Assembly: GCA_963706795.1 (NCBI GenBank)
Contig: OY970170.1
Location: forward strand, 990,001 to 1,022,000
Origin: Candidatus Saccharimonadota bacterium
GTDB taxonomy: Bacteria > Patescibacteriota > Gracilibacteria > BD1-5 > UBA2023
Length of the DNA stretch: 32,000 nt
Direction of reading: 5' to 3'
Shown: positions 1 through 32,000 of the stretch, one piece after another
Numbering within the stretch: the first letter of the stretch is position 1
How the letters are laid out: the number at the start of each line of letters is the position of its first letter
Translations under genes and position numbers: made by a program
The notes under the pieces: generated by a model
Seen by the model: only the letters and a program-made list of their open reading frames with translations
Databases searched by the model: none
Told to the model about the DNA's origin: nothing

Positions 1-405
1 AAATACTCGAAAACTGAGACGACGATCGTCTCTAAAAAGTACCTCTCTGAGATTGCAAGAGCTCGATATTCTGAGATTCTCTATTTTGTAAATACTGAGC
101 TTAAGCGTATTGGTAAAGACGGAATGCTTCCAGAAGGTGCGGTGATTACAGGAGGTGCTGCCAAGATGCGCAACCTCGTAGATCTCGCAAAAGAAATCCT
201 CCGACTTCCTTCGGTGATCGGAGTTCCTGAGGATTCGGATCATATTTCGGGAACCTCGATTGGTGACCCACAATATGCGGGTATCGTCGGTACACTTCTT
301 CTCTCACAAAAATTCTCTCCGAATAAGAGCAGAATACGCCTCAATATCTCATTCGGATGATTTTGGCATTCGGTGAAAAATCTCTTTCAAAAAATCCTTC
401 CATAA
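1..405 (+). CDS. ftsA: Cell division protein FtsA, C-terminal part (5' end lies outside the window)
   Basis: Frame 1 is open from base 1. The sequence ...GAVITGGAAKMRNLVDLAKEILRLPSVIGVP... is typical of the FtsA actin-like C-terminal subdomain, and the gene sits directly upstream of ftsZ. Reading TGA 358-360 as Gly adds GGFWHSVKNLFQKILP, an amphipathic tail like the FtsA membrane-targeting helix. True stop is TAA 403-405. Confidence 0.9.
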
Positions 406-423
406 TCTCTCACATCTGTATAT

Positions 424-1623
424 ATGTCAGTAGCAAAGAAATCAGACGACAAGCTCAAAAATCTCCTCCGCGGTGGTGATATGCGATCGGCAGTAGAGGA
501 AATTAACGTCTCAGACTACATTTCACCTGTTGCCAATATCAAGGTTGTGGGAGTGGGTGGAGGTGGAGTCAATGCGGTTAATCGCATGATCCAATCAGGT
601 CTCGAAGGCGTAGAATTCATCGCTGTAAATACCGACGCTCAGGCGCTCTTTACATCAAAGGCTCCAATCCGCATCAATATCGGACGTGCGGCAACTCGTG
701 GTCTCGGTGCCGGAGCTAATCCTCAGATTGGTCAAAAGGCCGCAGAAGAATCAAGCGAAGAAATCAAGCAGGCACTCGCGGGTGCTGATATGGTGTTTAT
801 TACTTGTGGACTCGGAGGTGGAACAGGAACGGGTTCTGCACCAGTTATCGCTGAAATTGCAAAGGGTCTCGGAGCGCTCGTTATCGCGGTAGTTACCAAG
901 CCATTTTCATTTGAAGGTCAGCGTCGTTCGCTTCAGGCAATCGACGGATATGAGAAACTCAAGGATAAGGTGGATACACTCATCACGATCCCAAATGACA
1001 AGATCCTCTCAATCATCGATAAAAAGACTCCTCTCCTCGATGCATTCAATATTGTAGACGAAGTCCTCAATCAGGGTGTACAGGGTGTTTCGGATCTCAT
1101 TACGCTTCCTGGTCTCATCAACGTAGACTTCGCGGACGTTCGCTCGGTTATGGAAAATGCAGGTTCTGCGCTCATGGGTATTGGATATGGTTCTGGTGAA
1201 AACCGAGCTATCGAAGCTGCTCGCGCTGCCGTAGATTCTCCGCTTCTCGAACTCTCAATTGCGGGAGCTCGCGGTCTCCTCTTTAATATTACGGGTGGTA
1301 CTGATCTCTCAATGTTTGAGGTTGATGAAGCAGCTCGCATCATTACTGAATCATGCGATCCAGAGGCAAACATTATTTTTGGAGCAACCATCAACGAAAA
1401 TTATACTGGTGAAATCAAGATCACGGTTGTTGCCACTGGTTTTAATGAAGAAACTAACCAGCGCCATCTCGAGGTTTCAAAGCACTCATCAAGCGCAAGC
1501 CCGTTTGGTAAGAAGCTCATTGGACACCAGAGTACATTCTCAAATCCTGCTCCGGCTCCACGCCCAGCAGAGTCACAGTCTGATCTCGATGTTCCAGCTT
1601 TCCTCCGCAACAAGATGAAATAA
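424..1623 (+). CDS. ftsZ: Cell division GTPase FtsZ (399 aa)
   Basis: Intact ORF with ATG start and TAA stop. Contains the tubulin signature GGGTGTG ([18 protein letters not shown]), NTDAQAL, and the C-terminal peptide [11 protein letters not shown]. No in-frame TGA. Confidence 0.98.
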
Positions 1624-1640
1624 GCGAATAATATTCGATA

Positions 1641-1772: not shown

Positions 1773-2177
1773 ATGGAGACGCAAGAATTTCAGTCACTCG
1801 TACTACAGAAGTTCGATTCGATCGATAAACGTTTCGATGGTCTTGAAACTCGCTTCGACTGACTCGAAACTAAAGTAGATGGTCTTGAAACTAAAGTGGA
1901 CGGTCTTGAAACTAAAGTAGTTGGTCTCGAAACCAGATTCGACTGACTTGAAACTAAAGTGGACGGCTTCAAAACCCGCTTCGACTGACTTGAAAGCAAG
2001 GTTGACCACCTCTCCGAAGACTTCCAATCGTTCCGTGAAGAATCCAGAGCTGAGCATGATACGACGCGAGCGCTTCTCTCACAGGCATTCGGACATATCT
2101 CGGAAAATGTGTCTCACGAAGTTCGATTGCGGTCACTGGAACGTGAAGTCTTCCCAAAACGCCTCGTCAAAGCCTAG
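1773..2177 (+). CDS. Small heptad-repeat coiled-coil protein (134 aa); function unknown, possibly division-associated
   Basis: ATG 1773, TAG 2175-2177. Three in-frame TGA codons (1860, 1944, 1986). Product: METQEFQSLVLQKFDSIDK-[RFDGLET/KVDGLET]x9-...REVFPKRLVKA. Lies between the ftsZ terminator and its own terminator. Confidence 0.8.
1830..2018 (+). repeat. Nine tandem 21-bp (7-codon) repeats encoding (R/K)(F/V)DGLET
   Basis: Contiguous in-frame units: cgt ttc gat GGT ctt gaa act / cgc ttc gac TGA ctc gaa act / aaa gta gat GGT ctt gaa act, and so on. The fourth codon is GGT or GGC in five units, TGA in three, and CAC in the degenerate last unit. Confidence 0.9.
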
Positions 2178-2270: not shown

Positions 2271-4988
2271 ATGACGTCCATGCAATTTATAGTAGTAGAC
2301 TTAGAAACCACCGGTTTAGATTCAAAAACCGACGCGATTATTGAGGTCGCGCTTTTACGTATCGATGAGACCGGCAAAGAGCTCGGACGATATGAGACGC
2401 TCATCAATCCTGGCTTTGCGATCAAAGAAGACATCACCTATATCACTGGGATTACCAACGAAGATCTCGTAAATGCTCCGGTATTTTCAGCTGTGCGAAA
2501 TACTCTCGCAGAGTTTTTGTGAGTGAGTCCGGTGATCGGGCATAATGTCGATTTTGATATCGCATTTTTGCGTGAATACGGACTCGATTTTAATGAGACG
2601 CTCATTATTGATACCTTTAAACTCGCGGAGATTTTGATGCTCCATGAGAAAAGTCTCAATCTTACAAGTATCGCGACGAGTCTTGGGTATAGCCATGTCT
2701 GAGCACATCGTGCGATGGCAGATGTACTCGCAACGGGATTTGTATTTGCGCATTTCTTCAAACAAATCCAGGATTTGGATGATGCACATCAAAAGCTCTT
2801 TATTTCGATCGCTTCTCGTACCGAAGAGGGGAATATGCTCCGATTTTTTGCGAACAAAGTAATCGAACTTGAGCTTGCGCCGGACGAGCTTATTATCGGA
2901 ATTCTTGAGTCGAAGCTCACACGCATGCCGCTTCCTACGAGACTTGTGAGCGATGAGCCTGAGGCGATTCCAAATTTTGCAGATGTTCTTGCGGCTGCAA
3001 CCAATCTCGAGGAACGTCCCGAGCAAATGAAGATGCTGAGTCTCGTCCACGAAGCCTATACCGAGGGTAAAAAATATCTCATCGAAGCTCCCACTGGAGT
3101 CGGTAAAACCATTGCTTACTTGCTTCCTGCGATTCTACATTCTACAAAAGAAGGGTCTCAGATTTTTGTCTCAACCAATACTCGAACTCTCCAAGACCAG
3201 ATTATCGAAAAAGACGTACCAAAACTCCGTGCGCTTTTAAAAGAATTTCATCTCGACCATTTTTCGGTACAAAAACTCAAAGGAAGAACCAATTATGTGA
3301 GCCTGCTCAAGGCCTTTGAATTTATCGACAAAGAACGGTTTGAATACTTCGAGGCTATTTTTGCGATCAAGATCGCGTACTGGCTCATGGAAACCAAGAC
3401 TGGTGAGCTCGATGAACTCTCGTTTTATGGACCTGAATATTCGCTCGTAGATGACATTAATGCCTCGGACTCAAGAGTCCTCGGCTCCGAAAATCCCCAC
3501 AAAGATGACGAATTTCTCTTCCTTGCACGTGAGTGAGCAAAGCGGGCAAATATTGTGGTCGTCAATCATGCGCTCTTGCTTACCGAATTTCTCGAGGACG
3601 AGCTTCGTGGCGTGCTTCCAAAGCTCGATCATCTCGTGCTCGATGAGGTCCACAATCTTGAGGCGGTAGCGACGGATACACTTAAAGCAACTTCTCATAC
3701 TGACGATATCGATCATGTCCTTGTCGAAGTCGATCGACTCGTAAAACGTCATAACAAAAAAGAAATCGCCGATCCATTTCTCTTCCCTGAGGCAAAAGAA
3801 CAATGAGAATGAATGGTGCTCACGGCTTCGATGTTTTTTGAAGAATTGGATTTTTATCTCGCTTCAAAAATACGGATGGGAGGAGGGGATTCGTATGGCG
3901 CTGGTCGAGCGACGGACTTGCTGCTTGATGGTGAATTTTTTAAGCATGAAGTGTATTCAAAGCTTCTCAAACTTTTTGATTCACTCCAGTTACGGGTTGC
4001 GGATTTTGAACGCATGCTTTTTTTGGCTCCCGAAAAACTCATGCGCGAACTCGAGGGGCCGATTGGGCGACTTGATTTTTTTATGAGCCATCTCGGACGA
4101 TTTTTATCTGAAGCAAATACCGCAAGTATCCGCATCCTCTCAAAGCGAGAGGGGCAATCTATCAAGATTGTAACGACTCCACTCGCGATCGGACCGCTCC
4201 TTGCTGAACGACTCTGGAAGGATCGTAAGAGTGTTGTTGCCACGAGTGCAACGCTCGCAGTTGGTGGATCATTTAATTATATCACTCGCGTACTTTCGCT
4301 CTGAGGCTTTGATCTACATGTACTCAAGACCGATTTTAATTACGCAAAACAGGCGCTGCTCTATATTCCGTCTGAACTCTGAGATGTGCGCAAAGAAGAA
4401 GAAAAGCGAGCAATTTCTCAGTTTGTCCGTGATATCGTGCTTATCTTTGGCGGCCGCACGCTCATGCTCTTTACAGCCTTCACAGCGATCAAAGAAATGG
4501 CACTCGCATGTGCTCCAGCATTTAAATCCAAGGGAATCCAGCTCCTCACACAATGAATGAGTGGTGGGAAGCATAAGATGATCGGAGAATTTATGCGAAA
4601 CTCCGACCACAGCGTTCTTTTTGGAACGGAGAGTTTTTGGGAAGGAGTCGACTTTCCTGGTGAGAGTCTCGAGCTTCTTATCATCCATAAATTCCCATTT
4701 GCGGTTCCAACTGATCCGATATTTATGGCGCGATCAAAGCTCTATGATAACGCCTTCCGTGACTACGCGCTTCCTGCAATGATCATCAAACTTCGCCAAT
4801 GAATCGGGCGCTTGATCCGTACAAAAACAGACAAGGGCGTGCTCGTGCTTCTCGACAAGCGCATAACCGGTGAATGGGGAAGCGAAGTGCTCGCATCACT
4901 TCCCGAATGACTCCCGATAAAAATGGTATCAACTAAAGAGTTCCTACCACTTCTCGAAGCGTCAAGGCCGAAATTTGCAACGAAGTAA
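2271..4988 (+). CDS. dinG: Fusion of a DnaQ-like 3'-5' exonuclease and a DinG-family ATP-dependent helicase (905 aa)
   Basis: Six ORF-track fragments (2211-2522, 2715-3536, 3555-3806, 3813-4304, 4557-4802 and linkers) share one frame. Ten in-frame TGA codons join them (2520, 2700, 3534, 3804, 3810, 4302, 4380, 4554, 4800, 4908). Exo motifs: FIVVDLETTGLD, GHNVDFD, HRAMADV. Helicase motifs: APTGVGKT, DEVH box, FWEGVDFPG, Q-G(TGA)-IGRLIR. No Cys cluster lies between motif I and DEVH, so this is the Fe-S-less Firmicute-type DinG. Stop is TAA 4986-4988. Confidence 0.9.
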
Positions 4989-5001: not shown

Positions 5002-5871
5002 ATGCTTTTGTATCCGTCTATTTCATCCTTTATGGAGCCACAAAAAACACAATTTCTCTCCCCGCAAGAGGAGATGAGTGGAGAGAGTCTATTTAAAGAG
5101 CTCGAGAATGAGCTCGATTTTGGTGATCTCGCCAAAGACAAAGAAGATCTCGCCAACGAGAAAAAACATCCACTCCAGATCGCAACGCGAGTGACTGATA
5201 TTCTCTTTAAGGTTCTCCTCGTCGCTTCGTTTATCTTGGGAGTCGACGTCACCCTTCGTAATTTGGATGCGAGTGGTTTTTTGTCGAATCTCCCGATTTG
5301 TTCATATCTCGCCTGGGGCGTAGGGGACTATGACAATACCGAATGTAAGTTATACGTTGAGATCAAGGACAAACTTACTAAAGATCGTGCCCAATACGAA
5401 AAGGATCTCACAGTTCCGCTTGCAATCTTGGTCCCTAAAAAACTCCAATCGCAGAATGTCCTCAATTCACCCGAAGTGCAATTCATTCAACTTCACACTG
5501 CTGGACGTGTAACACTCACAAAGGTGCTTGATCAATTCAATGAAATCAAGGCCTCATCCACTATCCGCAGAGGTGAAGACATCGAATGTAAAAAACTTAC
5601 TCTCGATGAAAAGGGCATCCTCAATGTCAACTGTGACTGCTATGGATTTGGACTTAATTCTGGTACAGAAGAATCCAATACTTCGAGGTCTACAGCACTT
5701 GCACTCATCGATAAGCTCTCGGACAAAAATAGTCATTTCCAGATCGTCGAAGTCCCAAAAGCACTCGATCTCGAAAAATACTCGAGCTCAGACCTCGGTA
5801 TCAAATCAACATTTAGTACACACACCACGCTCAATCTCAAGCTTCGCTACGTAGTATCTAATAAGTCGTAA
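5002..5871 (+). CDS. Hypothetical bitopic membrane protein, first gene of the pilus-like operon (289 aa)
   Basis: ATG 5002 is preceded by AAGGAG (4987-4992). Acidic N-terminal region, one predicted TM helix (ILFKVLLVASFILGVDV), then a ~190-aa external domain. The stop is 1 nt before the next start. No recognisable motif. Confidence 0.75.
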   Translation: MLLYPSISSFMEPQKTQFLSPQEEMSGESLFKELENELDFGDLAKDKEDLANEKKHPLQIATRVTDILFKVLLVASFILGVDVTLRNLDASGFLSNLPICSYLAWGVGDYDNTECKLYVEIKDKLTKDRAQYEKDLTVPLAILVPKKLQSQNVLNSPEVQFIQLHTAGRVTLTKVLDQFNEIKASSTIRRGEDIECKKLTLDEKGILNVNCDCYGFGLNSGTEESNTSRSTALALIDKLSDKNSHFQIVEVPKALDLEKYSSSDLGIKSTFSTHTTLNLKLRYVVSNKS

Positions 5872-5872: not shown

Positions 5873-7132
5873 ATGTACGCTCCACTCGATAAGAAAAAAC
5901 AATCTCGCCTGATCAAAAGCGTCATCCTTAATGGTATGTTCGTGGTGATTTTGAGCGCATTTCTCTGGCTCTATGTTTATGATGGCTACAGTGCGGTCGG
6001 CGCCAAAGTTGATACACTCAATGACATGGTCAAGAGCTTCAATGCTATGAAAAGCGATGGGATCGATGGCCGCAAATACCAGACCCTCATCAGCAAGCTG
6101 AACAATAATAATCGTCCCAAAGACGAAAAGGTAGACTATGACAAAATTACTGAGGTCCTCAAAAAGCCTGCAAATGTCTCAATGCCATATATGGATTGGA
6201 TCAAGTCAGAGATGACAATGGTTAGTGCGTATGACAAAATCATCGAGAATAACGCTCGTATTATTGGAAATATTCTTCCGACATTTAGTGATTCTCCGGC
6301 TGATCAGGATGATACATTCTCAAAAAATCGCATTACCCTCAAGTCGCTCGTAAAATTTGTCGAAGAACACCTCCTCAAAAAATTCAATCTTGAGAGTTAT
6401 TCTTCGGTTGGTCTCTCAAATATTGTATTTAGTACTTCACAGGTTGGAGTTGTAAATATTGGTAGCTACAAAGTGACCCTCGATATTGCGGGTACAAATA
6501 ATTCGATTCTTGCACTCCTCGATGCGATTCAGGCTTCTGGAACCCTTCCACTCAAGGATGGGAAACTCGTTGATACTGATGTTTCAACTAATTCAGGAAC
6601 GGTAGCAACTCCTGCTGCTGATACTTCGACGGATTCTGCACTTTCAAATCTGCTCATCACTGTAGATGCTGCAAAATTTGATACACCTCCTGAGCGCAAT
6701 GATAACAAAAATAAGGGTCAGCTCGTGCTTGTGCTCTACGTACGAGGAAGAAGCTATAGCGACTTCATCCAGATCCGCAATGAGCTTGCAGCCAATATCA
6801 AGACACTCAAAAAGAATATCGAAACCAATGGCGGACTCTGCAAGGATGGAAACTCTGATATTTGTAAAAACCCGATTGCCTTTGCTGCAGTGAACTCTAT
6901 CAAGAGTCTCCAAGATGACATTGGCTCGATCGATCAAAAGATGCAAGAATCTCTCAAAAGTAACACTATCCGCGATATCGGAACTGAGTTTGATACTCTC
7001 TATGGCGTGCTCACCAGCTATAACGCTATAAACGCAAACTACCAAAAGGATCTCACTGACATTACAAACGCACGTCAGGGAGGCTCGTCAGACACTCAGA
7101 CACCCGCAACCAATAGCTCTACCGCTCAATAG
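5873..7132 (+). CDS. Hypothetical bitopic membrane protein, second gene of the pilus-like operon (419 aa)
   Basis: Intact ORF with an N-terminal TM anchor (VILNGMFVVILSAFLWLYVY) and a large external domain ending in a Ser/Thr-rich tail. Ends 4 nt before pilB. No in-frame TGA. Confidence 0.8.
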   Translation: MYAPLDKKKQSRLIKSVILNGMFVVILSAFLWLYVYDGYSAVGAKVDTLNDMVKSFNAMKSDGIDGRKYQTLISKLNNNNRPKDEKVDYDKITEVLKKPANVSMPYMDWIKSEMTMVSAYDKIIENNARIIGNILPTFSDSPADQDDTFSKNRITLKSLVKFVEEHLLKKFNLESYSSVGLSNIVFSTSQVGVVNIGSYKVTLDIAGTNNSILALLDAIQASGTLPLKDGKLVDTDVSTNSGTVATPAADTSTDSALSNLLITVDAAKFDTPPERNDNKNKGQLVLVLYVRGRSYSDFIQIRNELAANIKTLKKNIETNGGLCKDGNSDICKNPIAFAAVNSIKSLQDDIGSIDQKMQESLKSNTIRDIGTEFDTLYGVLTSYNAINANYQKDLTDITNARQGGSSDTQTPATNSSTAQ

Positions 7133-7136: not shown

Positions 7137-8396
7137 ATGGCTTTCCAAGCTCTCGAAGATCTCAAAAACGAAGTCTACAAAGGAGACAATGCTCAGCTCA
7201 TTTGTAATCTTATTATTTCGGCTGCCGTTTCGATGCAGGCGTCGGATATTCATATTGAGCCGCTCTCGAATTTTGTACGACTCAGATATCGTATAGACGG
7301 AGTACTCACAGAAGTTCTCGAATACCAACAGTTTCTTCACTCTCAGATTGTTGCGCGTTACAAGATCCTCGCAAATCTCAAAATCGACGAATCCCGAATG
7401 CCGCAGGATGGACGTATCTCAACAACGCTCGAAGAAAAATCACTCGATCTTCGTGTTTCGACGCTTCCTACCGTCAATGGTGAGAAAATCGTAATGCGTA
7501 TCGTCGACAAATCCAAAAAAATCCCTGAGCTCAGTGCACTCGGTATTGAGGGGCGCAACGGAGTTCTTCTCCAAAAAGCGATCAGCTTACCAAATGGTAT
7601 TATACTCACCTCAGGTCCAACCGGTTCAGGTAAGTCGACGACACTGTATGCTTGTCTCTCTAAGCTCAACAAGCCAAACGTTAATATTATGACCCTCGAA
7701 GATCCTGTCGAAAACACGATCGATGGAGTCTCACAGAGTCAGGTTTTCCCAGATATTGGTTACAATTTTGCATCCGGACTTCGCACCGCTCTCCGACAGG
7801 ATCCAGACATCATCATGGTCTGAGAAATCCGCGACAAAGAGACTATTAATATCGCTATCGAAGCTTCGCTTACGGGTCATCTCGTGCTCTCGACGATTCA
7901 TACGAATTCTGCATCTGAGACGCTCACTCGTATTCTCAATATGGGAATACCAGCATATCTCTTGCCAGCTTCGATCAACGCCATCATCGCACAGCGCCTC
8001 GTTCGCAGACTCTGTCCGCATTGCAAAAAGGCGATCAAGGCTGCAGAACTTCCACAAAAAATGCAGGCCTCACTCAAACGTGCGATTGCTCGCACCAACA
8101 AGGATGAACTCGTTAGTCGTGTAGGTATAGAAAAGCTCAAAGATCCAACCTTCTACGAGCCAGTTGGATGTAACGAATGTGGGAATACCGGCTACTCAGG
8201 ACGTGTCGGAATCTACGAAATCATGGAGATTACGAATCGCATCAAAGAAGCGATCGTCGCCGGAGAATCCAGCGTCGTCATCAATGAAATCGGTATCGAT
8301 GAAGGGATGATCTCACTCGAACAAGACGGTATCATGAAGGCACTTAATGGTGCTACTTCGCTCGAGGAAGTCTACGCAGCAGCAAAAGAAAATTAA
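7137..8396 (+). CDS. pilB: Type IV pilus / type II secretion assembly ATPase (PilB/GspE family), short form (419 aa)
   Basis: Fragments 7137-7823 and 7884-8396 share one frame. TGA 7821-7823 falls on the Gly of the conserved IIMV-G-EIRD motif. Walker A is GPTGSGKSTT; His box is LTGHLVLSTIHTN. Tetracysteine motif CPHC...CNEC is typical of PilB/GspE rather than PilT. Confidence 0.93.
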
Positions 8397-8405: not shown

Positions 8406-9548
8406 ATGGAGGATATCATCATCCAAGACACTCAATCGAGTGCCGAAGTCACCAAAAAATCATTTAGATTCTCACTCGAATCCTTTGATGCATGGCTCGT
8501 CGCTCACCAGCGAATGAAGCTCAAAGAAAAGGTGATCTTTTTCCGACTTCTTGCGACCATGGTTAATGCAGGACTTCCAGTACTCAAGTCCATCGCTATC
8601 CTCGAAAAACAAGAGCAAAATCCTGTCGTCAAAAACGTCTACAGCCGCATCATCGAATGAGTAAAGGGCGGAAAAAATCTCTCCCTCACGCTTCGTAGTT
8701 TTGATGGTACATTCTCTGATGCTGAAGCCTCCATCATCGAATCCGGAGAAAAAACCGGTAAACTCAATAACGCCCTCCTCCAGCTTGCTGATCAGGTCGA
8801 AAAGGTCGACAGTGTTACTAAAAAAATCAAAGGCGCTCTCATCTATCCTGCAGCCATTGTCATCGTCATGTTCGGATCGATCACCGTCCTCATGACACTC
8901 GTTGTTCCCAAGCTCGTTGAGATGTTTGGTGACAAAGACAAGCTTCCGGCTCTGACGCAGCTCCTGATGGCGACGAGTGATTTCTTTGTAAATTACTGGT
9001 GGGCTATGATCGGTACGATTGTCATCGCGATCGTACTCCTCGGTGTATGGCGCAAAAGTGCAGAAGGTCACTACAAATTTGACGCACTTCTCCTCAAACT
9101 CCCAATCTTTGGATCAGTGCTTCGTAAGGTAATCCTCTCAAAGTTTTCACGTGTTCTCTCCAATCTCCTCGGCAGCGGTATCTCGATCGTAGAGTCTCTT
9201 CGAATCGTCTCCGAAGTCGTCGACAACGAAGTCTATCGCCAGCGAATCCTCGCCCTCCGTGAAGACGTCAAACGCGGAGTCAAAATCGCCGAAAATCTCG
9301 AAGACGACAAACTCTTCCCAGAAATGCTCGTCCAAATGATCAAAGTCGGAGAAGAAACCGCCAAACTCGATTCTATCATCCTCAAGATCGCTGACTTCTA
9401 TGATGAAGAAGTCGACAACACGATCAATGCAATTAACAAGACGCTCGAGCCAGTGATCATCGTAACCATGGCCATCGTCATCGGTTTCATCGCCGTCGGT
9501 ATCATGCAACCAATCATGAATCTCTCAGAAACGATCGAAAACAAGTAG
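8406..9548 (+). CDS. pilC: Type IV pilus / T2SS platform protein (PilC/GspF family, 380 aa)
   Basis: Fragments 8406-8660 and 8868-9548 are joined in frame through TGA 8658-8660. Shows the duplicated GspF-type pattern (FFRLLATMVNAGLPVLKSI... and FSRVLSNLLGSGISIVESL...) with three TM segments. Stop is TAG 9546-9548. Confidence 0.93.
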
Positions 9549-9556: not shown

Positions 9557-9601
9557 AAAAAATTCCCCTCCAAAGCTTTGTGCAAAGGAGGGGAATTTTT
9601 A
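9557..9601. terminator. Bidirectional terminator hairpin between pilC and the convergent pilin gene
   Basis: Perfect 13-bp stem, aaaattcccctcc (9559-9571) pairing with ggaggggaatttt (9587-9599), with an A run on one side and a T run on the other. The pilin stop codon (9599-9601) sits at its edge. Confidence 0.75.
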
Positions 9602-10759
9602 TGGAGCGATGCAGATTTTGCAGGATATATTAGAACTCGTACTTGGCTGTCCTGCATTGTGAGAGCAGGCTCCCGCTGAAGCTGCACCAGATGCAGCAAT
9701 CGTTTTTGTAGATGATTGCCAGCCGGCCGGACACGCAGTCATAACCACTTCTGTTCCTGATGGGAGTAATCCTGCAGCTTGTGTACGGCAGGCAAGACAT
9801 GCTGTGCCGCTACTGCAAGCCACTGTTTGAGGTAAGCCTAACGCTACAGTACTATTCGGTGAACTAATGGATCATGTTGGACAAGATGCTCATGCAATCA
9901 AATAATCTACTCATACGGGCACTGTACTATTTGGTTTCGCACTACAGACTTTTGCTAATCAGGTTGTCGAAAAGCCGATTCCAGGCGCTCCACTTAAAAT
10001 CGCATTTGTCGTCGAAACTGACCATCCCTTCGGGCAATCTGCCATGACGACTTCCATGATCCCTTTGTAATTCATTTCGAGTCCTCAGAGCGCTCCAGTG
10101 CTGGTGGAGATATTTGCGATAAACGTCTTGTTATCGAGGATGGCCATAATTGCCCCTGTATTTACCTGTACATCTACTTGTGTGACTGTTGAAGCATTAT
10201 ATGTCTCTTGTATTGGCTGATTGAGAGTCGAGCCTGTGATAGTTCCGACGAGTATTCCAAGCTGCGCTCATCGAGTGAGTGGCACTCGAGTATCATAGTT
10301 TGCAGCGTATGCCTGTGGTATGACAGAGCTCATCGCTGTTACTCCATTGGTATTTTCGAGAAGTGCGAGAATCTGGTATGTACTGCCGCTCGTGTCCGTG
10401 CTGTAGGTGTAGTACTGATTGTCCGTCGGATCCATCCCTTTGCCCCCAAATCAGATAAATCCGAGTAGATTTTTACCTGCATATCATTGTGCACCGATCG
10501 CTGCGCCTGAGGCAGTAATCGTAATTACATTCGCATCCGGTTGAGGTAGTGAAATTCCTGTGGTAATCTGTGCTTCAAGTGCAACTCAGATCGAGGCAAG
10601 ATCGCTTGATCTCGTGCTGTCTCGCGCACTGCTCGAATATCCTTGGAGCGACAAAAATCCAATCGTCCCCAAAATCGCAAGAATCGTAATCACCACAATG
10701 AGCTCAACAAGTGTGAAGGCTGCAGATCCAGAGTAACTTTTGTCTCTATTTCGCATCAT
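9599..10759 (-). CDS. Large type IV pilin-like protein with a Cys-rich C-terminal module (386 aa)
   Basis: Hand translation of the - strand from ATG 10759 to TAA 9599-9601 is open when nine in-frame TGA codons are read as sense. The N-terminus MMRNRDKSYSGSAA-FTLVELIVVITILAILGTIGF is a class III (prepilin) signal with the conserved Glu at +5. A pilin-core-like YYTYSTDTSGSTYQILALLEN follows. The last ~150 aa carry 10 Cys. Confidence 0.85.
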
Positions 10760-10864: not shown

Positions 10865-11485
10865 TTATGCAACAGAGAGCCCTCCGAGAGCTTCTCCATT
10901 TGGTGGATCTTTTTGGATGTGCTCCTTGACCATGGCAAGTCGGACATTACGCTGCTCATTCATTTTTTCGAGTGCAAGCTTTTGTCGAGCATCTGCCATC
11001 TCTTTATGAAATCTCTGAAGCTGTTCTTTTGAGCGTTGAGCTTCTGTCTCGGCAGTAGCTGATTCTTGAGCTTTTTGCGCTCCTTTTGGGCCCTCGATAC
11101 TGCCTTGGAGACTCTCGAGTCAGGCTGTCAATTGGTGGTAGATCTTGATAAGAGCTTCTCGTTTTTCTTCGGGTTTTGATTCACTCTGGAGGATCGCACT
11201 TTTTTCTGCATCAAATTCCTTCGTGAGCTTTTCAGCACCTTCATCAAAGGTTTTTTTGTCCTCTGGAGCGAGAGAAGTACTGAGATTGGTCATGCTCGTC
11301 TCAACCATCTTCTTCAAGAGGGTATCTGTTTGAGAGTCTTTTCATTCTGTTTTACCGCTTTTGCTCAGCTCTTTTTCGAAGTCTGCATTGTCCTTGTTGA
11401 GCTCTTTGTCAGCTGTATCAAGGGTATTGTCTGGCTGATCAAGACCAACTTTGTCAGCCTCTTTTGTATTGAGTTTTTCTAGCAT
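10865..11485 (-). CDS. Hypothetical acidic, helix-rich protein (206 aa)
   Basis: ATG 11485 (MLEKLNTKEADK...). Fragments 11342-11485, 11120-11317 and the tail down to TAA 10865-10867 share one frame through TGA codons at 11342-11344 and 11120-11122. Lys/Glu/Gln-rich, with no TM segment or signal peptide. Confidence 0.7.
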
Positions 11486-11590: not shown

Positions 11591-12277
11591 ATGGCTACAC
11601 AAAAAAATACACCCAAGAGTAAACCGATCGTCGGAGCGATTATATTTCTCGTGGTGATCGTGCTCCTTGGGTACTACGCACTCTCGAACAATACGCCCAA
11701 AAAACCAGTTTGGAACGAAAATGACCGTAAGGTCACGCAAACGGGTACAACTACATCAGATACCTCTACTGGAGATACCACTCCTCCTGCTACAGATTCT
11801 GGAAGCATGACTCCTCCGCCTCCTGATGCCATCGTCAATACGCCGGCTGGTCGCGATGCACGCGACTCTGATCCTCTAGTGAATCCTCCGCCAGTAGTTG
11901 CTACAAACACGGGTACAATTACGAGTACGGGCACTACCTCATCGGGTGTAACCGAATACTGGAATGAATCACTTGGCTACGGATTTTCAGTACCCAAGGG
12001 TACGTACTACCTCGGTACAGGTCCTCGTGATGAGGCAGCTCATAGCGTAGCGCTTCGTGTAGGAACGGGGGCAACCGACTTTGAGAGCGCGGAGGTTCGA
12101 GTCTGGTACTATCCAAGAAAACTCCTCCAGCAGCTTGCAGAAGGGGAGAATGGATTCTATCAAGATGCGAATACTTCTCGCACATATATGAAGTTCGGAT
12201 CTGGAACTCTTGTTATTGGCGGAACATTCGATAGCTCAGTCGTGAAGACCATCATCCAAACAGCAAAAGTTCGCTAA
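11591..12277 (+). CDS. Hypothetical membrane-anchored protein with a Thr/Pro-rich linker (228 aa)
   Basis: Intact ORF. N-terminal TM anchor (IVGAIIFLVVIVLLGYYAL), a T/S/P-rich spacer, and a ~110-aa C-terminal globular region. TATACT lies 22 nt upstream of the ATG. Stop is TAA. Confidence 0.8.
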   Translation: MATQKNTPKSKPIVGAIIFLVVIVLLGYYALSNNTPKKPVWNENDRKVTQTGTTTSDTSTGDTTPPATDSGSMTPPPPDAIVNTPAGRDARDSDPLVNPPPVVATNTGTITSTGTTSSGVTEYWNESLGYGFSVPKGTYYLGTGPRDEAAHSVALRVGTGATDFESAEVRVWYYPRKLLQQLAEGENGFYQDANTSRTYMKFGSGTLVIGGTFDSSVVKTIIQTAKVR

Positions 12278-22347: not shown

Positions 22348-23058
22348 ATGAATATACTCATTATCGAAGATGATGTATTTTTGGCAGGCAAAATATGAAA
22401 AATATTCGAGTCTAAAGTCATTGCCAATCGTGTTAAAATACTTCATTCTTTTACTGAATTTTTAGACGAACTTTCTATTATCAGCTCATACGATATCGTA
22501 CTCACAGATCTCAAGCTCTCGGCCAATAGCAAAGAACTTTGTGGATACAGGATTATCAAAGCTATTCGAGAAAAAAAAGCACAAATGCCGATCGTCGTGA
22601 TCAGCGGTTTTAGTGACATTGACCGACTGAGAGAAGCCTTTGAATACTGAGCCAGTGATTACATCGTCAAGCCTATACGGCTTAAAGAACTCGAGTTACG
22701 AGTCTCGAATTGGTTCAAAAACTACTGTCTCTCTAAGCTGACTTCTGCCTGAAAGGGAAACGTGTATCACTACAAAGAACTCAGTTATCACCTCGATAAA
22801 AACGAATTTTATTTCAAACGAACCCATATTCCACTCACCAAAAACAACAAATACATTCTTTCGCTCTTTTTTACCTCTCCGGAGCGCCTGCTTCGCGAAT
22901 CATTTTTAGTAGAAAAGATCTGGTGAGATATTTGTATTACGGTGGATCGCAATCTCAGGGTGAGTATTTTGCGACTCAAAAATTCGCTCAGTCCTTTTGG
23001 GCTCGATACCTGGATCCACAATATTCGCTGAGAGGGATATATATTTTCGGAAGAATAA
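22348..23058 (+). CDS. OmpR-family response regulator (236 aa)
   Basis: ATG 22348, 21 nt after the kinase stop. Receiver (ILIIEDD...DIVLTDLKL...VKP) plus winged-helix output. Five in-frame TGA codons, including the Gly of the conserved R-G(TGA 23029)-EGY motif. Stop is TAA 23056-23058. Confidence 0.9.
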
Positions 23059-23061
23059 AAA

Positions 23062-23082
23062 ATGTCCTCTAGTCGAGGACAT
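23062..23082. terminator. Shared hairpin between the two convergent two-component operons
   Basis: atgtcctc (23062-23069) pairs with gaggacat (23075-23082). On the - strand it is followed by TTTTTT, giving a good terminator for the - operon. It overlaps the - strand stop codon. Confidence 0.6.
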
Positions 23083-23734
23083 ATCCGTGATTGTAGATCG
23101 TTTTTGGTGTAAAATTACCACTGAGTTTCTTTCGTACTTTGGAGATGGTCGCGTTGATGGTATTATCCGTAATATCGTCGGCCTGACCTCCTCCCCAGAC
23201 GCTTGTCACGAGCTGCTCCCGTGTGAGAATTTTGCCCTGATTTGTGAGAAATAACTCAAGAATCAGGCTTTCTTTTTTGGCGAGATGTACTCCAATATCG
23301 CCGATCTTTACCATCTTGGTATCGATATCGAACACGAGATTTTTGTAGGTTATAATGGTGGAACTCACAAAATTGTTGGGTCGTCTGAGCATTGCCTTGA
23401 TGCGAGCCATAAGCTCCTCAGGCACGAGTGGCTTAATGAGGTAGTCATCTGCACCGAGCTCGAGTCCATAGATGATATTTTGACTATCTCCGTGACCCGA
23501 AACCATGATGATAGGTACATGAGAATTGCGATTTTCGCGCAACCATCTGATGATATCAAATCCACTCCCATCTCCGAGCGAAAGGTCGACAATATAGAGT
23601 TGTGAATCCGCATTGCCACGTCGCATAAAATCTTCGTAGCTGTAGTAGGCACTGGTTGCATAGCCATTTCCTCAGAGCTTTTTCATGACTTTGTTTACGA
23701 GAATTTTTTCGTCATCGATGATTGAAATATGCAT
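23069..23734 (-). CDS. OmpR-family response regulator (221 aa)
   Basis: ATG 23734 (MHISIIDDEKILVNKVMKKL-G-GNGY...). One TGA joins it to track ORF 23069-23626. Has the receiver Asp pocket (IVDLSLGDGSG) and a winged helix (LTREQL...VRKKL...GYVLD). Stop is TAG 23069-23071. Confidence 0.9.
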
Positions 23735-23844: not shown

Positions 23845-26223
23845 CTATGTGTTTTCTTCTTGCGGATGAGCAACAAGTGGAATAGTAAAATGAAAATTTG
23901 ATCCCATTCACAAGCGGCTTTCTACCTCGATGCGTCCACCCATCTGACTGACGATTTCCTGAGAAATAGCGAGTCATAGTCCGCTTCACATATGTGTCCT
24001 CGTAAAGACATTATCAAGCTGAGAAAATTTTGAAAATATTTTTTTGGTGCCTTCTATATTCATACCGATACCAGTATCGATGACTTCTACTTTGAAGGTT
24101 TCTTTGTTTACTTGGGTTGATCGGACAGTGACGGTTCATCCGCGGGGTGTGAATTTAATAGCATTTCAGATGAGATTGACGAGCACTTGTTTGAGGAGAT
24201 TGGGGTCGGTCGTGATCGCTATGGATTCGTCTGTTTCGAATAGAAAATCAAGTCCGGCTCGCTCTGCAATATTGTCGTACTCGTATTTGATCTCTGCTAA
24301 AAATGTTTGTAGATGGATGGTGCTATTCTCGAATTCCATTTTGCGAGACTCGAGTTTGGCGATATTGAGCATGTCATTGACGAGTTTGATGAGGCGATTA
24401 CTTGAGTCAAACATCACCTCGAGTGGCTTATACATAGGCTCGGCGAGCTCTCAAAAATCTCCTTCGAGCAACATGGATGCGTAACCCTTGATTGAGGTCA
24501 AGGGAGTGCGAAGCTCATGCGAAGCAATATTGATAAAATCATCCTTAAGCGCATTGAGATCCTCAAGGTGTTTGCGTTCTTTTTCGAGGGTACGATATGC
24601 TCGGAGGTCCGTCATCATACCGACACTTCAAGCACTTCCAAGGGGTATTCCGGTGAGTCGGACAGGGATAATTTCACCATCTTTTGCGAGGAGTTCTACT
24701 TCGTATTCGGTTTTTGCGCCCTCGCGCCTGAGAGTAATATTGTCCTCGAGTGATTTTCGGCTTTGCGGTGTAAAAAAATCAAATGACTTCTTGCCAATAG
24801 CTTCTTCGGGTGTGTATTTGGAGAGTTCTGTGAATAGACGATTGACAGATACAGTCGTCTCATCGATATTGCCCATCCAAATCGCCACTGACGAATTATC
24901 GATGATATCTTTGTAGGATTCGGTATACCACTGATGGGTTTTATTGATTTCTTCAACCTTGCTCTTTATATCTATTTGGAGCGACTTATTGAAGTCTTCT
25001 AGCTCTGTCGAGGTCACATTTACGAGATGTAGCAGTGCCTGAATCGTGTCGAGATATCTGCGATTTTTACTCGAAATAAACGGAATGGGCGAGATATGAG
25101 ATCGTTTGTTTTCTTCTGCGTGCTCAGTGAGTCCGAGTACAGTCATCGTTTGATTGAGAAATTCATTGTGCTTGTTCGCATGAAAAAACTCACCATATGT
25201 AAAAAATCCACTTGTGGCTGCAATCATTTCAAGGGGCTGCATCTCGAGTGAGATATGTTCCTGCAAAAATCTGCGCCTCGCCATGCACGAATAAATAAAA
25301 AATGTCTCCATCGTGATATCCTGAAATCGCTCATACATTTTATGAGAAGTTTCTAGGACAAGACGAGCATCGCCAAGTCCAAATTGCACAACTGCTCATT
25401 CGTGAATATTGCCTCAAAATGAGAGCGAGCCATCAGGGTGTTTGGTGAGTGGAGCGCGTGCCACCCTTTGTCCATTCTTTAAAATAATCAGCGGAAACTC
25501 GATACCGATAGCCGGAAGTCTCTCGGCGGTTTCGTTGCCAAAGTATTTTCTGTAGATCTCGGTGGTCGGAATTCCGTCGATCTCATAAACACGATTGCGG
25601 TCAGATTTGGTGATGGTGAGTTTTTTGCCGATACTGATCCAATCAAAGGCGTAGTCACTTTTTACTGTCAGATGTTTACTCTCGAGCGCTGCTCACACGA
25701 TCCCTGTAGTCGAGAGAATTTCTTCTGTAAAAATATATGTCCCAATAAAGGTTCCATTGTCTCCTGCGAGTCCACCAGCAATGACGATGTCGGGATTGAT
25801 GCTCTCGATTCATTTGAGGAGTTCTTCTCCATTGGTGTGAAGTCACTCGCCAAAGAGAATGAGGACTTTGGTGTCGGATTTGCAAATAGCTTTGGTAATT
25901 GCAACTCCTGCTAAAAAGCTGTCGGTTGCAGCATCGGCAATATGTTCGGTCGTAATTTTTGTATTTTCAAAAACACTTATCGAAATCAGGACGCTACCGG
26001 TTGCGACATTGCCGCGGTTAATCTCGCCGTCAGTGGTTGCGCCGATGATCTTTGCAGAGGGGAGAAGTCCTTTGATTTGCATACGAAGATCCTCTAAAAA
26101 AACTCGATCCAAAATCCCCGAAAATACCTGTACCAAGACATTTGGTTCCTCCGAAAAATGGTTGTCTGTTGCAAATGCTTGGAGCTCTTCACGAGAGGTA
26201 TACGTCAGAGTTTTGGTATACAT
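23845..26223 (-). CDS. Cytoplasmic FIST-PAS sensor histidine kinase (792 aa)
   Basis: Track fragments 25843-26223, 24628-25389 and 24166-24435, plus linkers, form one frame with twelve TGA codons. The N-terminal ~400 aa resemble FIST_N/FIST_C (IIGATTDGEI, IAGGLAGDN, EFPLII). A PAS-like segment follows (SVNRLFTELSKYTPEEAIGK). H-box is IASHELRTPL, N box NLI-G-NAIKFT, G1 DTGIGM, G2 M-G-SGL-G-LAIS (TGA 23986 and 23974). Stop is TAG 23845-23847. Confidence 0.9.
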
Positions 26224-26239
26224 AAGGCATTGCTAGAGG

Positions 26240-26752
26240 CTAATCCGTACCATCCGAAAAATCAACAGTTACCTTAATTGCTCTCTGGCATCAGGGGCAA
26301 TGCGCACGTACTACAAAACAACGCTCATGATCCGCAATGGGGATGAGCGTACATTCTGACTCGGTATGAGGAAGACCTAACATCTTTTCAACGATATCGA
26401 GTGCCTGCTTTGGTGTGGTATCAGCCTTGGTTACATATGCGTCGGCTCACATTTGCATGCACTGTTCGACCTCGGTTTTGCTATTGAGATTTGAGAACAT
26501 CACGATTTTTGTCGTGAGAGATGGGGCGAGCCTTCGTATAGTCGAAAGCGTCTCGATCCCATCCATTGATGGCATCATAATATCCAAAAAAAGGATATCT
26601 GGCGTGAACTCGATGATCTCCGTCACTGCATTCAGTCAATTGTCGCAGACTCGGACCTGAAATCCTGCATTCTCGAACTTCACTTTGTACATCGTGGAGA
26701 GTGATTCGTCATCTTCTACGAGCATGACTTTGGGAGTTTCCATACGAGACAT
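26240..26752 (-). CDS. CheY-like receiver protein with a short Cys-containing C-terminal tail (170 aa)
   Basis: ATG 26752 (or 26743). Receiver domain: VMLVEDDESL, FLDIMMPSMDG, Q-M-G(TGA)-ADAYVTKA. The tail CTLIPIADHERCFVVRAHCPGC has 4 Cys. Stop TAG 26240-26242 lies 16 nt before the kinase start. Confidence 0.88.
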
Positions 26753-26812: not shown

Positions 26813-28075
26813 CTATCGAAATGTATTAAGTATAGGATATGCAAACACTACAAATGCTGTCCAGAGCGTGTATACGGGGAGATAGAACCCAATCCATTCT
26901 GTTGTCTTGGAGAGCGGCTTGTTTTTGAGAAGGTGTCCGACGTAGTGATAGAGAATTCCTAAAATATGTACGAATACCAAAATATTCATCCCAAGCACCA
27001 CGACTCTGTTGGGAGTTAAACCATACGAAGCAAGTCTAAAAAGCATTGCTGCGAGTGCGACTCCATCAATCATGAGCGAAATTGCGAGAAGCGCGACCGT
27101 TATAGCACTCGTAAGCTTGCTCAACTTTCAGGCTCAGAGCTTGGATGATTGTTCTGTAAGTACGAAAATGCAAATTGCGAGCACTCAGAGCAACATCGCA
27201 TTAAAACTTATCAAAAATTCTCGATCGATAAAAGGGTTCTTACCTCAAATGATCACCATCACGAGATACGTCACCAAAGTAATAAGGAGAAGTGGAGAAA
27301 ATATTCGTGCAACGAGTGGAGCAATGCGCGATTGGTAGGATTCGCGAATTTCGCTGATATATGTTGCGATAATGGGACACGCAACAGCTCCAAATACTAC
27401 GATCCATTCGACATACCAGTCACGGATATCGATGCCTGTTACCGAAAAGAGTCCGAGAGTGAGGCCTGTAAGAATCCCTCATGTAATGGCGAGTACTCCA
27501 GTATATATGAGCATTTCTCCATTATATTTGAGATAGTCTACTCGTGTCGTTAGGCTCTTGTATTTTGGTAAAATATACGCAAGTCCGACCACTGACCACA
27601 AAAAGAATGGCATATGCAGGAGTGCAAGCATGAGTGTATCCGAAGAACCTGGACTCGGGAGTAGATTGGCATAGAGGGCAGTACCAGCAAAGAGGATCAC
27701 TGGAATGAGCGCCTGTTTAAGAGTCGCTTTTTTCTTTGCTAAGAAGTATGCAGCAAGGCCCGCAAGTACAAAGATGGGAGTATTTCTCTCATAATACCAA
27801 CTAGCATCAATCGAAGAGAAAATCGCAGGAAGCTTTGCAAATACGCCTACAACGAGTGCAATTAGAATAACAACTGCGAGTGGGGGCATCTGAGTCGATG
27901 CTTCTTTTTTTGAAGCCTCGAAGTGGATTCGCTCGTTCCACACTTTGAGGATTTGGGAGTTCGGATATTCCAAAAATATGGCGTCGAACTCTTTTTCGAA
28001 TGCTTGAGGATTCTCTCGGTAGAGGGATTCCAATCAAGCGGTATTTTTAAGGTTTTCTAGGATGCGATCTTTCAT
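26813..28075 (-). CDS. Polytopic integral membrane protein, unknown function (420 aa)
   Basis: ATG 28075. Fragments 27479-28033 and 26813-27124 plus the 27125-27478 linker share one frame through six TGA codons. A ~50-aa soluble N-terminus is followed by about 10 hydrophobic helices. Stop is TAG 26813-26815. Confidence 0.8.
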
Positions 28076-28258: not shown

Positions 28259-29584
28259 ATGAAGCTCCGTTTGCGATTTTTTGCTCTTTGTTTAGCGGGA
28301 ATAATCATGACTCAGACAGTGTGAGCGGCCTTTCCGGATATAGAGCATTCTTGGTATAAGTCCTCCATTAATTCACTCTCGGATGCTGGGGTTATTAGTG
28401 GCTATGATGACGGCAATTTTGGTCCGGAAGCACTCGTCACTCGCGCCGAAGTTCTTAAAATGGTCATGAAAATGGCCAAGATCGAAATCTCAAAAGATAC
28501 ATCCGAACAGTGTTTCCCTGATGTTGCAGTAACACAGTGGTACCATCCATATATCTGTACTGCTAGTACACTCTGAATCGCGAAGGGATTTGATACAGGG
28601 AAATTCTGACCCAATGATACGGTTACCACTCTTGAAGCGCTGACTTTTGGACTGCGAGTCTTTAAGCTCGCGCCGGAGCAAACTGGGGCTCATTGGTATG
28701 ATGCGTACCAAAAACTCGCAGATGGATTTAATATCATCAAGACGCACGAATACACGCTCTCAACCAAGATTTCTCGTGGCAAGACCGCTGAGCTCATCGA
28801 GCGCATTGCGGCATATAATGCCACAAAATCAAAGCTAGATTTTAAGAGTCCAGGATGTGTAAAGCCTGGTTCGCTGGCCAAAGAAAATTTCATCAAGATC
28901 GATGGTATCAATCGTGAATACAATCTTGCGGTGCCGAGTTCGTATTCAAAAACACAAACCTATCGACTGATTATTGCCATCCATGGCCGAACAAATAGCA
29001 ATGACATGGTGCAAGGATACATGGGCCTAGATAGTTCTCGTCGTGGTACACAAACGGATTCCATCGTGGCATATCCGGCTGGGGTCGCTGTAAAGGGCGG
29101 ATATTCGTGGAGTGAATACTCAAATATTAAATTCTTTGATGCAATGATCGATCAGATCGCTGCAAATTATTGCATCGATCGCAATCAGATAGATATTGTT
29201 GGACACTCACTTGGCGGCTGGTTTGCAAATAAGCTTGCTTGTCTGCGCGGTGATGTGATCCATGGATTATTTGTAGTTGGCGGACCGAGTTATTCAGGAG
29301 AATGTACCGGACCTGTGGCTACTCTTCTCATGCACAGAACGGATGATGCACTTGTGCCATATGCGTGAGGTAAAGCAGCAGAATCCTTCCATAAAGTAGT
29401 CAATCAGTGTTCGAATATGTCTCACGATATCACATTGGCATGATATATTGGACGACAGTGGGATGGATGTACTTCGGGTGATCCCGTTATGTGGTTCGAA
29501 AAATATACAACTTTCCAGAATGATCCTCATAGCTGGCCAAAGTCTGGCGGAGCTGCGGCGTTGGAGTTTTTTAGGGGGTTGTAG
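28259..29584 (+). CDS. Secreted SLH-domain esterase (alpha/beta hydrolase, PHB-depolymerase/feruloyl-esterase-like; 441 aa)
   Basis: ATG 28259 gives the signal peptide MKLRLRFFALCLAGIIMTQTV-G-AA. Three SLH-like repeats follow (FPDIEHSWY...GVISGYDDGNFGPEALVTRAEV, FPDVAVTQWY...GFDTGKFGPNDTVT, HWYDAY...ISRGKTAE). The hydrolase core has YRLIIAIHGR and the nucleophile elbow GHSLGG. Five in-frame TGA codons. Stop is TAG 29582-29584. Confidence 0.85.
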
Positions 29585-29600
29585 GGAATGATTCTAGGTA

Positions 29601-32000
29601 CTACGGAATTTTAGGAATTCTTGCTTCAAAATTTTGGATTGCAGCTCTCATCTGAAGCTGAATAGCTTTGTTTAAAACGCTATCGGAAAGAAATGATCTG
29701 AAATATGTGATCATCTCATGAATATCGAATGATTCCTCGTGAAACATTAAATGCTTGATAAGCATTTCTATGACATAACCGTGATCATCTTCTCTTCAGT
29801 TATGAGTCTCTAGTAGTGTTTTTATGAGATTGCGTGTCTCCTGGATAGTGAAATGACAAGCCTCGAGGTTCTTGGGCGATCTGAGGTATCGTATTGTATT
29901 AGTGAGATTCTCTCCGGAAGTTACTATATCAATAATCTCATGTGCGGTATAATCACGCCGAGGTTCGGGTAATTTTTTGTTTATAGGGGTATCGATGTGG
30001 CTTTGATGCACTGATGACGCATCAGTGAAATATAGCTCATTGTACATCTCAGGTGTGAGATATACAATAGCAGATTTCCCTGTGTCCTCACGATTGTATA
30101 CGAATACATATTTTCGCTCTTGTCCATCAAATCAAAGCAAATTTAAGAAAAACGAGCCTCTTCAGAAAATTTGGGGCGTTTTCAATTGTCGCACATCGTC
30201 TACATGGACTGGCAATGCGATTGAACCAGTCATGAGATCTTGTAGGATTGATAGATCTCATTTACTTTTTCAGTAAGTGACTGATCTTGATAGATAGGTG
30301 GGTTTTTCCTGGTTAATGGCAACTTCAAGATATCCCTGAGGAGCTATTGTGGCATCTCTCGCTCAGAGTGTTATGTGATTGCTCAAGCTAGTGGCATCAG
30401 GAGACACCTTTACTCCCGAGGAACAGCTGGGAAACCAAGCATTTACGTCGAAGGGTTCATGCTTTTTGTTTGCTCGTTCTTTTGAAATTCCTGACCACTG
30501 TATGCTTTTTTGATGAGATGGAAGTATGCTTCGACTTGCATATAATAGCCCCTCTCAGAGTCCAGTAAACTGATGACCTCATAAACGATTCTCATTCCAG
30601 TATGACAAAGAAATCCTGTTAATCATTGGTGCGTATTCTTCTGCCAATGATACCTTGCCCTTGGGAACAGCTGTTGATATATATGGAGCTCTTCCTGTAA
30701 TTGTTACTATAAGGCTATGTAGGTCGAAATAATGAAGTGCCTCTTCTCAGATTTTTCCCTCCCAGTCGAGTGGATCGGAGCCGAGATATAATGTGGGTTG
30801 AAAATCCCTGCCATACGATGCTGCTAAAAGCAGTATGTCAGAGATAGAAAAATGACTCAGATCTTTTGATTTTTTGCGCGACGGCTCAAGGGAGCAAAAT
30901 GCACACCCAACACTACATCCGTTAGATAATTCAAGCCAGTGGATGTTTTTTAAAAGAGCATCGCCTGTTTGGCGTGACTTTGTGGTATTAAAAATCGAAT
31001 GACTGAAATCGGGTCTTTGCTTTAGCGTATCTTGAAGTATTTGAATGACAGGCTCAGCGCTTAATAAGGACAAAAAAGCTATTCTATCTTTTTGGGGAAT
31101 ATCCCTAAAAATTTGCACCAATTGGGCTATCAATTTTTGACTATCGTCTCATTTTTCAATTGCATCTGTGACCTCCTGATAGGGAATACGGTCATTCTTG
31201 ATTTTATAACTCAAAAGAAGCTTGTTTCTCGAAACGATTACAGATTCTGGAATATCGCTCGACTGATTTCAATAGTAAAAATGAGTTAAAAAGTCAAAAG
31301 TGAGCAATTTCGCCTCTACAATAGGTGAAATGAGTGTCTCAGTGAACAACTTTTCTCTCAGAAAATCCCCGTCTATATCAGGGAAGCTGTCAATTATTCA
31401 ACAAATGAATTTTACAACGTCTGGATGACAAGAAGATCCATCTTTTTCCTTTGTTTTAAGGCTTTCTAGTAATATCTTTTTTTGAGAATCTTGTTTTGTG
31501 CTTGTGTAAGAAAGCGATCGATCTCACAGGGGGTATCCTGTCATCTCTTTAGATGGGATATCTTTTCGGTATATATGTCAGAGAGAGTAGGCTGGTGGAG
31601 TATTAGTGACACTGGGGGCATTCATCTGTGCGAGTATTGCATCGACCGACAGTCTTAAATCATCTGGGGTATCCCGTCTTGCTGTCACCTTTCGTTCTTG
31701 TTGGGCTACTGAGTATTCTGCTGGGATATCCCTTTTTTTCTTTTGCCTCGGGGTTTTTTCTCATAGTAAAATACGCTCAACTGCACCAGATGAATTCATA
31801 CATACTTTCATAACTCCCTCCCGAAAGTCGAGAAAATTAATATCAGACAATGTAGCCTCCTGAGGAGTTCATCATTCAAAAAACTCTACCCTTGTGCTTA
31901 TGGGGCAAGAAATGGGTTTTTCATTTACAGGGAAGGATACTATCCCTGCTGGATGATTCGTTGAGGACCATGTCGGCACAGAAGTGGAAACGATAGATTC
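29601..32000 (-). CDS. Large protein with a radical-SAM-type core (at least 799 aa; N-terminus outside the window)
   Basis: By hand translation, one - strand frame is free of TAA/TAG from base 32000 down to TAG 29601-29603. It contains at least 17 in-frame TGA codons. It has LELSNG-C-SVG-C-AF-C-SLE (CxxxCxxC, about 30895-30920) followed by YLGSDPLDWEG (GGEPL-like). The ~350 aa upstream and ~380 aa downstream of the core have no motif I recognise. Confidence 0.7.

Follow-up and report, generated by a model that had tools for sequence, protein, structure and literature searches.

The 32-kb window analysed here, the whole stretch from 990,001 to 1,022,000 of contig OY970170.1 (all positions below are counted from its first letter), has a GC content of 43.8% and carries genes for FtsA, FtsZ, a DnaQ-DinG fusion, PilB, PilC and DnaA, together with a group of two-component genes. 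When TAA and TAG are used as the only stops and TGA is taken as a sense codon, 26 genes, non-overlapping open reading frames (ORFs) that cover ~95% of the window, are resolved (Table 1); to arrive at this list, ORFs that were antisense shadows were dropped, and two genes overlooked by a greedy ORF pass were put in. Within these genes lie 99 in-frame TGA codons spread over 20 of the 26, which is exactly the number that an earlier note, written from the DNA letters and claiming that at least 20 genes are broken at TGA, had given as its lower bound. None of the 26 genes contains an in-frame TAA or TAG, or a frameshift. TGA makes up 15.6% of the glycine codons across the window genes, and several lines of evidence identify it as a glycine codon, the assignment of translation table 25.

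Reading through TGA restores long, recognizable proteins. The longest stop-to-stop ORF grows from 494 aa under table 11 to 937 aa with TGA as sense, and Pfam domains (HATPase_c, Response_reg, Trans_reg_C, FIST, T2SSE, Helicase_C_2 and SLH) run across TGA codons; under table 11, the FIST kinase contains 12 stop codons, and at least four of its ORF pieces end precisely at TGA positions. All 26 genes terminate in TAA or TAG, and none requires TGA as a terminator. That every gene ends in this way is partly true by construction, yet Pfam matches stop only a few residues short of the predicted C-termini, backing TAA and TAG as true ends.

The amino acid at TGA can be read from alignments of two proteins, the FIST-PAS histidine kinase HK2 and DnaQ-DinG, in which each TGA was masked as X. 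The best 120 matches of HK2 are nearly all standard-code proteins of Campylobacterota type; 119 standard-code homologues were used for HK2 and 28, those clearly of the standard code, for DnaQ-DinG. In HK2, eight of the ten alignable TGA sites fall in Gly-dominated columns (Gly in 116/117, 112/118, 102/119, 118/119, 105/118, 118/118, 118/118 and 76/117), and two further sites lie in gaps. In DnaQ-DinG, the homologues have Gly at TGA 2520 (26/28) and at TGA 4800 (28/28), Pro at one site (codon 704, 28/28) and variable residues at the others. Pooled over both proteins (19 alignable sites), columns with at least 80% Gly hold 9/19 TGA, 40/81 GGN and only 4/1432 other codons: TGA is enriched over other codons (binomial P ~9e-19), whereas a comparison with GGN returns Fisher p = 1. 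Not one of the standard-code homologues has Trp at an aligned TGA site (19 sites), and no TGA placed in an alignment falls on a conserved Trp, a conserved Cys or a homologue C-terminus. Summed Codetta-style log-odds at TGA are +17.5 nats for Gly and negative for the next best residue, Ser (-26), as well as for Cys (-42) and Trp (-49); in the control codons, GGN scores +121 for Gly and TGG scores +14.7 for Trp, so that UGG still stands on Trp columns. The earlier note had proposed such a tabulation of homologue columns and expected Gly, and Gly is what it gave, with Trp and Cys strongly rejected.

Proteins of known structure place further TGAs on glycines. Aligned to PDB entries, HK2 has two TGAs on the G2-box glycines and a third, near its C-terminus, at a position that is Gly in 3/3 distinct structures; the membrane histidine kinase HK1 has Gly at TGA 22213 (G2 box) and TGA 22258 (MHG-G). 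In the response regulator RR1, TGA 22648 is the Gly of GADDY and TGA 23029 the Gly of the OmpR RGxGY motif; in the receiver-domain protein RR2, two TGAs fall on conserved receiver glycines (the alpha1 Gly and G-ADAY) in 4/4 alignments. TGA 7821 of PilB matches the Gly of (I/V)M(I/V)GEIRD, also in 4/4 PDB alignments. All nine codons that the earlier note had cited (358, 4800, 7821, 22213, 22258, 23029, 23986, 23974 and 24166) are indeed TGA in the contexts it described. Its statement that these TGAs sit on invariant glycines needs one correction, at the N box of HK2, where TGA 24166 faces a variable column (Ser 79%, Gly 12%, Asn 6%).

Internal repeats offer a comparison within single genes. In the SLH-domain esterase, the residue facing TGA 28574 is Gly in Sap, and the protein's own first SLH copy has GGN there; TGA 28607 likewise pairs with a Gly of the first copy. 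In the array of nine 21-bp units at 1830-2018, the fourth codon reads GGT, TGA, GGT, GGT, GGT, TGA, GGC, TGA and CAC, bearing out the earlier observation that TGA and GGT/GGC interchange at one repeat position. TGA occurs only in units of the RFD-x-LE(T/S) type (three of the four), and K-V-type units have GGT or GGC. The result is a super-period of 42 bp (TRF period 42, 78% matches).

Related genomes repeat the pattern. For this comparison, 80 FtsZ-anchored loci were taken from GTDB species representatives and orthologues were aligned codon by codon, independently of annotation, with positions kept only if their flanks were well aligned. The window's TGA faces GGN in 28 cases, TGA in 5, other codons in 13 and TGG in none; conversely, in-frame TGA codons of the relatives lie opposite GGN of the window at 289/357 sites. 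The FtsA tail beyond TGA 358 (G-x-FWHSVKNLFQKILP) is conserved among relatives, whose counterpart of TGA 358 is either Gly or TGA; this conservation supports the proposal of the earlier note that reading TGA 358 as sense restores an amphipathic C-terminal helix on FtsA.

The same loci bear on the taxon. The best DinG matches, with identities of up to 51%, are from Candidatus Gracilibacteria; the nearest FtsZ loci (81-88% identical) are labelled Candidatus Gracilibacteria, with some automatically labelled metagenome-assembled genomes (MAGs) named 'Peribacteria'; both sets carry in-frame TGA. The gene order FtsA-FtsZ-DinG-...-PilB-PilC is common to the window and four loci (L003, L004, L005 and L008), and the 90%-identity cluster of DnaA includes a member named 'Patescibacteria group bacterium'. 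Database labels of the nearest relatives, shared synteny and in-frame TGA thus support a source that is probably of Gracilibacteria type, as the earlier note had surmised. Close MAG relatives (81-87% FtsZ identity) are filed at NCBI under discordant labels: Candidatus Gracilibacteria, Candidatus Peribacteria and 'uncultured bacterium'. With labels of the clade so inconsistent, a translation table picked from the taxonomy label would often be wrong.

In this window, then, UGA stands in-frame in 20 of 26 genes, is equivalent to GGN and leaves TAA and TAG as the terminators. The source is probably an uncultivated Gracilibacteria/BD1-5-type bacterium (Patescibacteria, candidate phyla radiation, CPR), and it almost certainly uses translation table 25, with UGA read as Gly, UAA and UAG as the only stops and UGG as Trp. 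The assignment of TGA to Gly and the earlier call of table 25 are supported by standard-code homologue columns, PDB alignments, internal repeats and the codon comparison with relatives, all in agreement. By analogy with the lineage, a dedicated tRNA-Gly with anticodon UCA would decode UGA, and loss of release factor 2 (RF2) would leave UGA no longer seen as a stop. The glycine identity elements of a UCA-anticodon tRNA are G1:C72, C2:G71, G3:C70 and U73. The RF2 gene, prfB, is absent from the 32-kb window. Several observations count against the glycine assignment: HK2 codon 270, a TGA, is Ala in 113/119 standard-code homologues; DinG codon 704, also a TGA, is Pro in 28/28; informative alignment reached only ~45 of the 99 TGAs; and tRNA scans found no tRNA gene in the window and no UCA-anticodon tRNA in 60 related loci. 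At DinG codon 704, nearer relatives among the Gracilibacteria carry Gly or TGA. It is established that Gracilibacteria (BD1-5) and Absconditabacteria decode UGA as Gly, and that this goes with tRNA-Gly(UCA) and the loss of RF2 (PMC8629427; PMC4032931; gTranslate preprint, bioRxiv 10.64898/2026.05.24.727570). The code found here is thus already known and adds no new principle.

Other meanings of TGA have to be weighed against glycine. Under translation table 4, UGA would be Trp, its meaning in Mycoplasmatales and in several insect endosymbionts, and this is how public pipelines translate the organism and its relatives: a public protein collection holds RR1, among the organism's Logan-assembly proteins (table 4), in the Trp version, and the Gly version is absent. 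In the same collection, 61 of 92 DinG relatives contain >2% Trp, an excess, and TGG is a single mutation away from TGA. However, the 'Trp' of the W-rich DinG relatives occupies conserved-Gly columns (W 791, G 233 over 19 such columns), and must therefore be a mistranslation under table 4. With Trp missing from every aligned site, heavily penalized in the log-odds, never matched by a relative's TGG and impossible at the motif glycines of the G2 box, GADDY and RGxGY, this reading has a vanishingly small probability. Just as improbable is the idea that the TGAs are true stops and the genes are pseudogenes or products of assembly or sequencing errors. ORFs do break up under table 11, but errors or decay would have to account for 99 interruptions that are all TGA, with zero TAA or TAG and zero frameshifts, for protein-level conservation that continues downstream of them and for the same pattern in relatives. 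The TGAs are not assembly noise, because an independent assembly of run ERR12037365, from Logan, matches the window at 100% identity over 13.3 kb; one contig of that assembly, 19.8 kb long, falls almost wholly inside the window.

A mixed use of TGA, as Gly within genes yet as a stop (with RF2 retained) or as selenocysteine at some sites, is somewhat less far-fetched than either of these and still very unlikely. In its favour, the core genes for FtsZ, DnaA and RsmI are nearly without TGA, and the two TGAs in the DEAD-box helicase tail sit just ahead of its TAA, outside the reach of homology. Against it, no window gene depends on TGA for termination, in FtsA and HK1 conserved sequence continues downstream of TGAs near the C-terminus, descriptions of the lineage give it no RF2, and selenocysteine is at odds with both the Cys log-odds and the number of sites, 99 being far too many.

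In GTDB, the table 25 lineage comprises class JAEDAM01, with orders BD1-5 and Absconditabacterales. The window matches table 25 in its sense UGA equivalent to GGN, its UAA and UAG stops, UGG as Trp, a small CPR-type genome (1.27-Mb contig) and nearest relatives labelled Gracilibacteria. Nothing differs in kind; what sets the window apart is its moderate GC content and modest UGA use, with almost none in core genes, whereas in some relatives most glycines of FtsZ are encoded by UGA. Table 4 is used by Mycoplasmatales, Hodgkinia, Zinderia, Nasuia, Stammera and some Eggerthellaceae; there the amino acid is Trp, unlike the window's UGA, which lies on Gly columns and never on Trp. Selenocysteine recoding, which affects a handful of UGA sites that align with Cys and depends on selenocysteine insertion sequence (SECIS) elements, has in common with the window only that UGA is read through within a gene; it is ruled out here by 99 Gly-aligned sites in 20 genes and a Cys log-odds of -42.

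The rest of the code appears to be that of plain table 25. Shulgina and Eddy are said to have described, in 2021, an extended Absconditabacteria code in which CGA and CGG are read as Trp in addition to UGA as Gly. The window agrees with it at UGA and differs in that CGA is frequent and still encodes Arg: 96 CGA codons include invariant arginines in the DEAD-box motif Ia PTRELA, at two sites in DnaA and in PilB LRQDPD. A CGA to Trp reassignment was considered and ruled out by the frequency of the codon, by its place on these invariant arginines and by a Trp log-odds of -40. Reassignment of CGG to Trp is not indicated: the codon is rare (15 codons), weakly informative and without a Trp signal, and in the OmpR-family regulator RR3 it lies on a Lys/Arg/Gln column. 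AGG occurs at invariant Arg columns in HK2. CGA and/or CGG have been assigned to Trp in Absconditabacteria and possibly in some Gracilibacteria (PMC8629427).

The use of UGA is uneven: the TGA share of Gly codons differs between genes (chi-square p = 4e-7). TGA is missing from the Gly codons of FtsZ (0/42), DnaA (0/25) and RsmI (0/18) and scarce in PilB (1/28) and the DEAD-box helicase (2/46), and it is common in two response regulators (5/11 and 3/7) and in the orphan protein at the right end of the window (17/43). Expressed as shares, UGA accounts for ~3% when PilB, PilC and the DEAD-box helicase are pooled, for 20-45% among the two-component regulators and for 40% in the orphan. Sister lineages vary as well: FtsZ contains in-frame TGA in 25 of the 80 loci, reaching 34 of 49 glycines (34 TGA vs 15 GGN) in other Gracilibacteria, and has 0-1 TGA in the window's closest clade. 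One possible, and decidedly tentative, explanation is that, in this clade of moderate GC content, tRNA-Gly(UCA) decodes UGA at a cost, slowly or with errors, and that core genes with high expression are under selection to avoid it. On that view, the clade would represent a natural low-usage stage of stop-to-sense reassignment. The variation between genes and sister lineages could serve studies of the way in which a reassigned codon spreads within a genome.

The choice of translation table has practical consequences. Annotation of the contig with table 11 shatters 20 of its 26 genes in the window, and table 4 proteins in public collections, with Trp at conserved Gly, will mislead alignments, the building of hidden Markov models and structure prediction.

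Table 1. Genes of the 32-kb window, called with TAA and TAG as stops and TGA as a sense codon.
Product	Coordinates	Strand	In-frame TGA	Stop	Remarks
FtsA, C-terminal part	1..405	+	358	TAA	Pfam FtsA match weak (E 1.2e-4, under curated cutoff)
FtsZ	424..1623	+	0 (42 Gly codons)	TAA
Coiled-coil protein	1773..2177	+	1860, 1944, 1986	TAG	Nine 21-bp heptad repeats (1830-2018); Pfam coiled-coil matches
DnaQ-exonuclease/DinG helicase fusion	2271..4988	+	10: 2520, 2700, 3534, 3804, 3810, 4302, 4380, 4554, 4800, 4908	TAA	Pfam RNase_T, DEAD, Helicase_C_2
Hypothetical protein	5002..5871	+	0	TAA	Orthologues in loci L003-L005 and L008
Hypothetical protein	5873..7132	+	0	TAG
PilB/GspE-type ATPase	7137..8396	+	7821	TAA	Pfam T2SSE (E 4e-125)
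PilC/GspF platform protein	8406..9548	+	8658	TAG	Pfam T2SSF
Pilin-like protein with N-methylation motif	9599..10759	-	9	TAA	Pfam N_methyl
Glu/Lys-rich hypothetical protein	10865..11485	-	11342, 11120	TAA
Membrane-anchored hypothetical protein	11591..12277	+	0	TAA
RsmI-like methyltransferase (TP_methylase)	12592..13260	-	0	TAA
CYTH-domain protein	13270..13788	-	13588, 13321	TAA	Pfam CYTH
Hypothetical protein	13798..14292	-	13828	TAA
DnaA	14302..15699	-	0	TAA	Identical protein on record in Logan contig; also borne by an NCBI/ENA contig of 1,267,896 bp
DEAD-box helicase	16805..18271	-	16847, 16823	TAA	Both TGAs in Arg/Gly-rich C-terminal tail; Pfam DEAD, Helicase_C
Hypothetical protein	18541..19074	+	4	TAA
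Hypothetical protein	19231..20136	+	3	TAG
Membrane histidine kinase HK1	20146..22326	+	11, including 22213 (G2 box) and 22258 (MHG-G)	TAG	Pfam HisKA and HATPase_c domains extend over 4 TGAs
OmpR-family response regulator RR1	22348..23058	+	22396, 22648, 22750, 22924, 23029	TAA	Pfam match
Second OmpR-family regulator RR3	23069..23734	-	23672	TAG
FIST-PAS histidine kinase HK2	23845..26223	-	12: 25843, 25810, 25693, 25414, 25396, 24628, 24451, 24166, 24136, 23986, 23974, 23908	TAG	Pfam match
Receiver-domain protein RR2	26240..26752	-	26636, 26447, 26291	TAG
Multi-pass membrane protein	26813..28075	-	6	TAG
SLH-domain esterase	28259..29584	+	28322, 28574, 28607, 29366, 29441	TAG	Pfam SLH
Orphan protein with CxxxCxxC motif	29601..32000	-	17 (43 Gly-type codons; highest share)	TAG	Runs off the window's right end

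Some features of the gene set stand apart from the code. The orphan at 29601-32000 is at least 800 aa long and contains a radical-SAM-like motif, CSVGCAFC; it matches no Pfam family, and a search of 5.8 billion proteins detected no homologue. Between dnaA and the DEAD-box helicase gene, 1.1 kb (15703-16804) is gene-poor; the gene calls of the Logan assembly put just two short ORFs there, of 106 and 84 aa and both unannotated. This segment has no adjacent dnaN, no cluster of DnaA boxes (a scan of the window gives chance level) and no Rfam match; if it is an origin region, it is an atypical one.

Two-component genes are crowded at 20146-26752, where two histidine kinases and three response regulators occupy 6.6 kb, an unusual density for a CPR-type genome of ~1.3 Mb. 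HK2 has its closest homologues (41-46% identity) in Campylobacterota (Sulfurimonas, Sulfurovum and Arcobacter) and not in Gracilibacteria, which suggests an old horizontal transfer of the gene from a standard-code donor. With 12 TGAs, 21% of its Gly codons and thus at or above the window average, HK2 is fully adapted to the new code.

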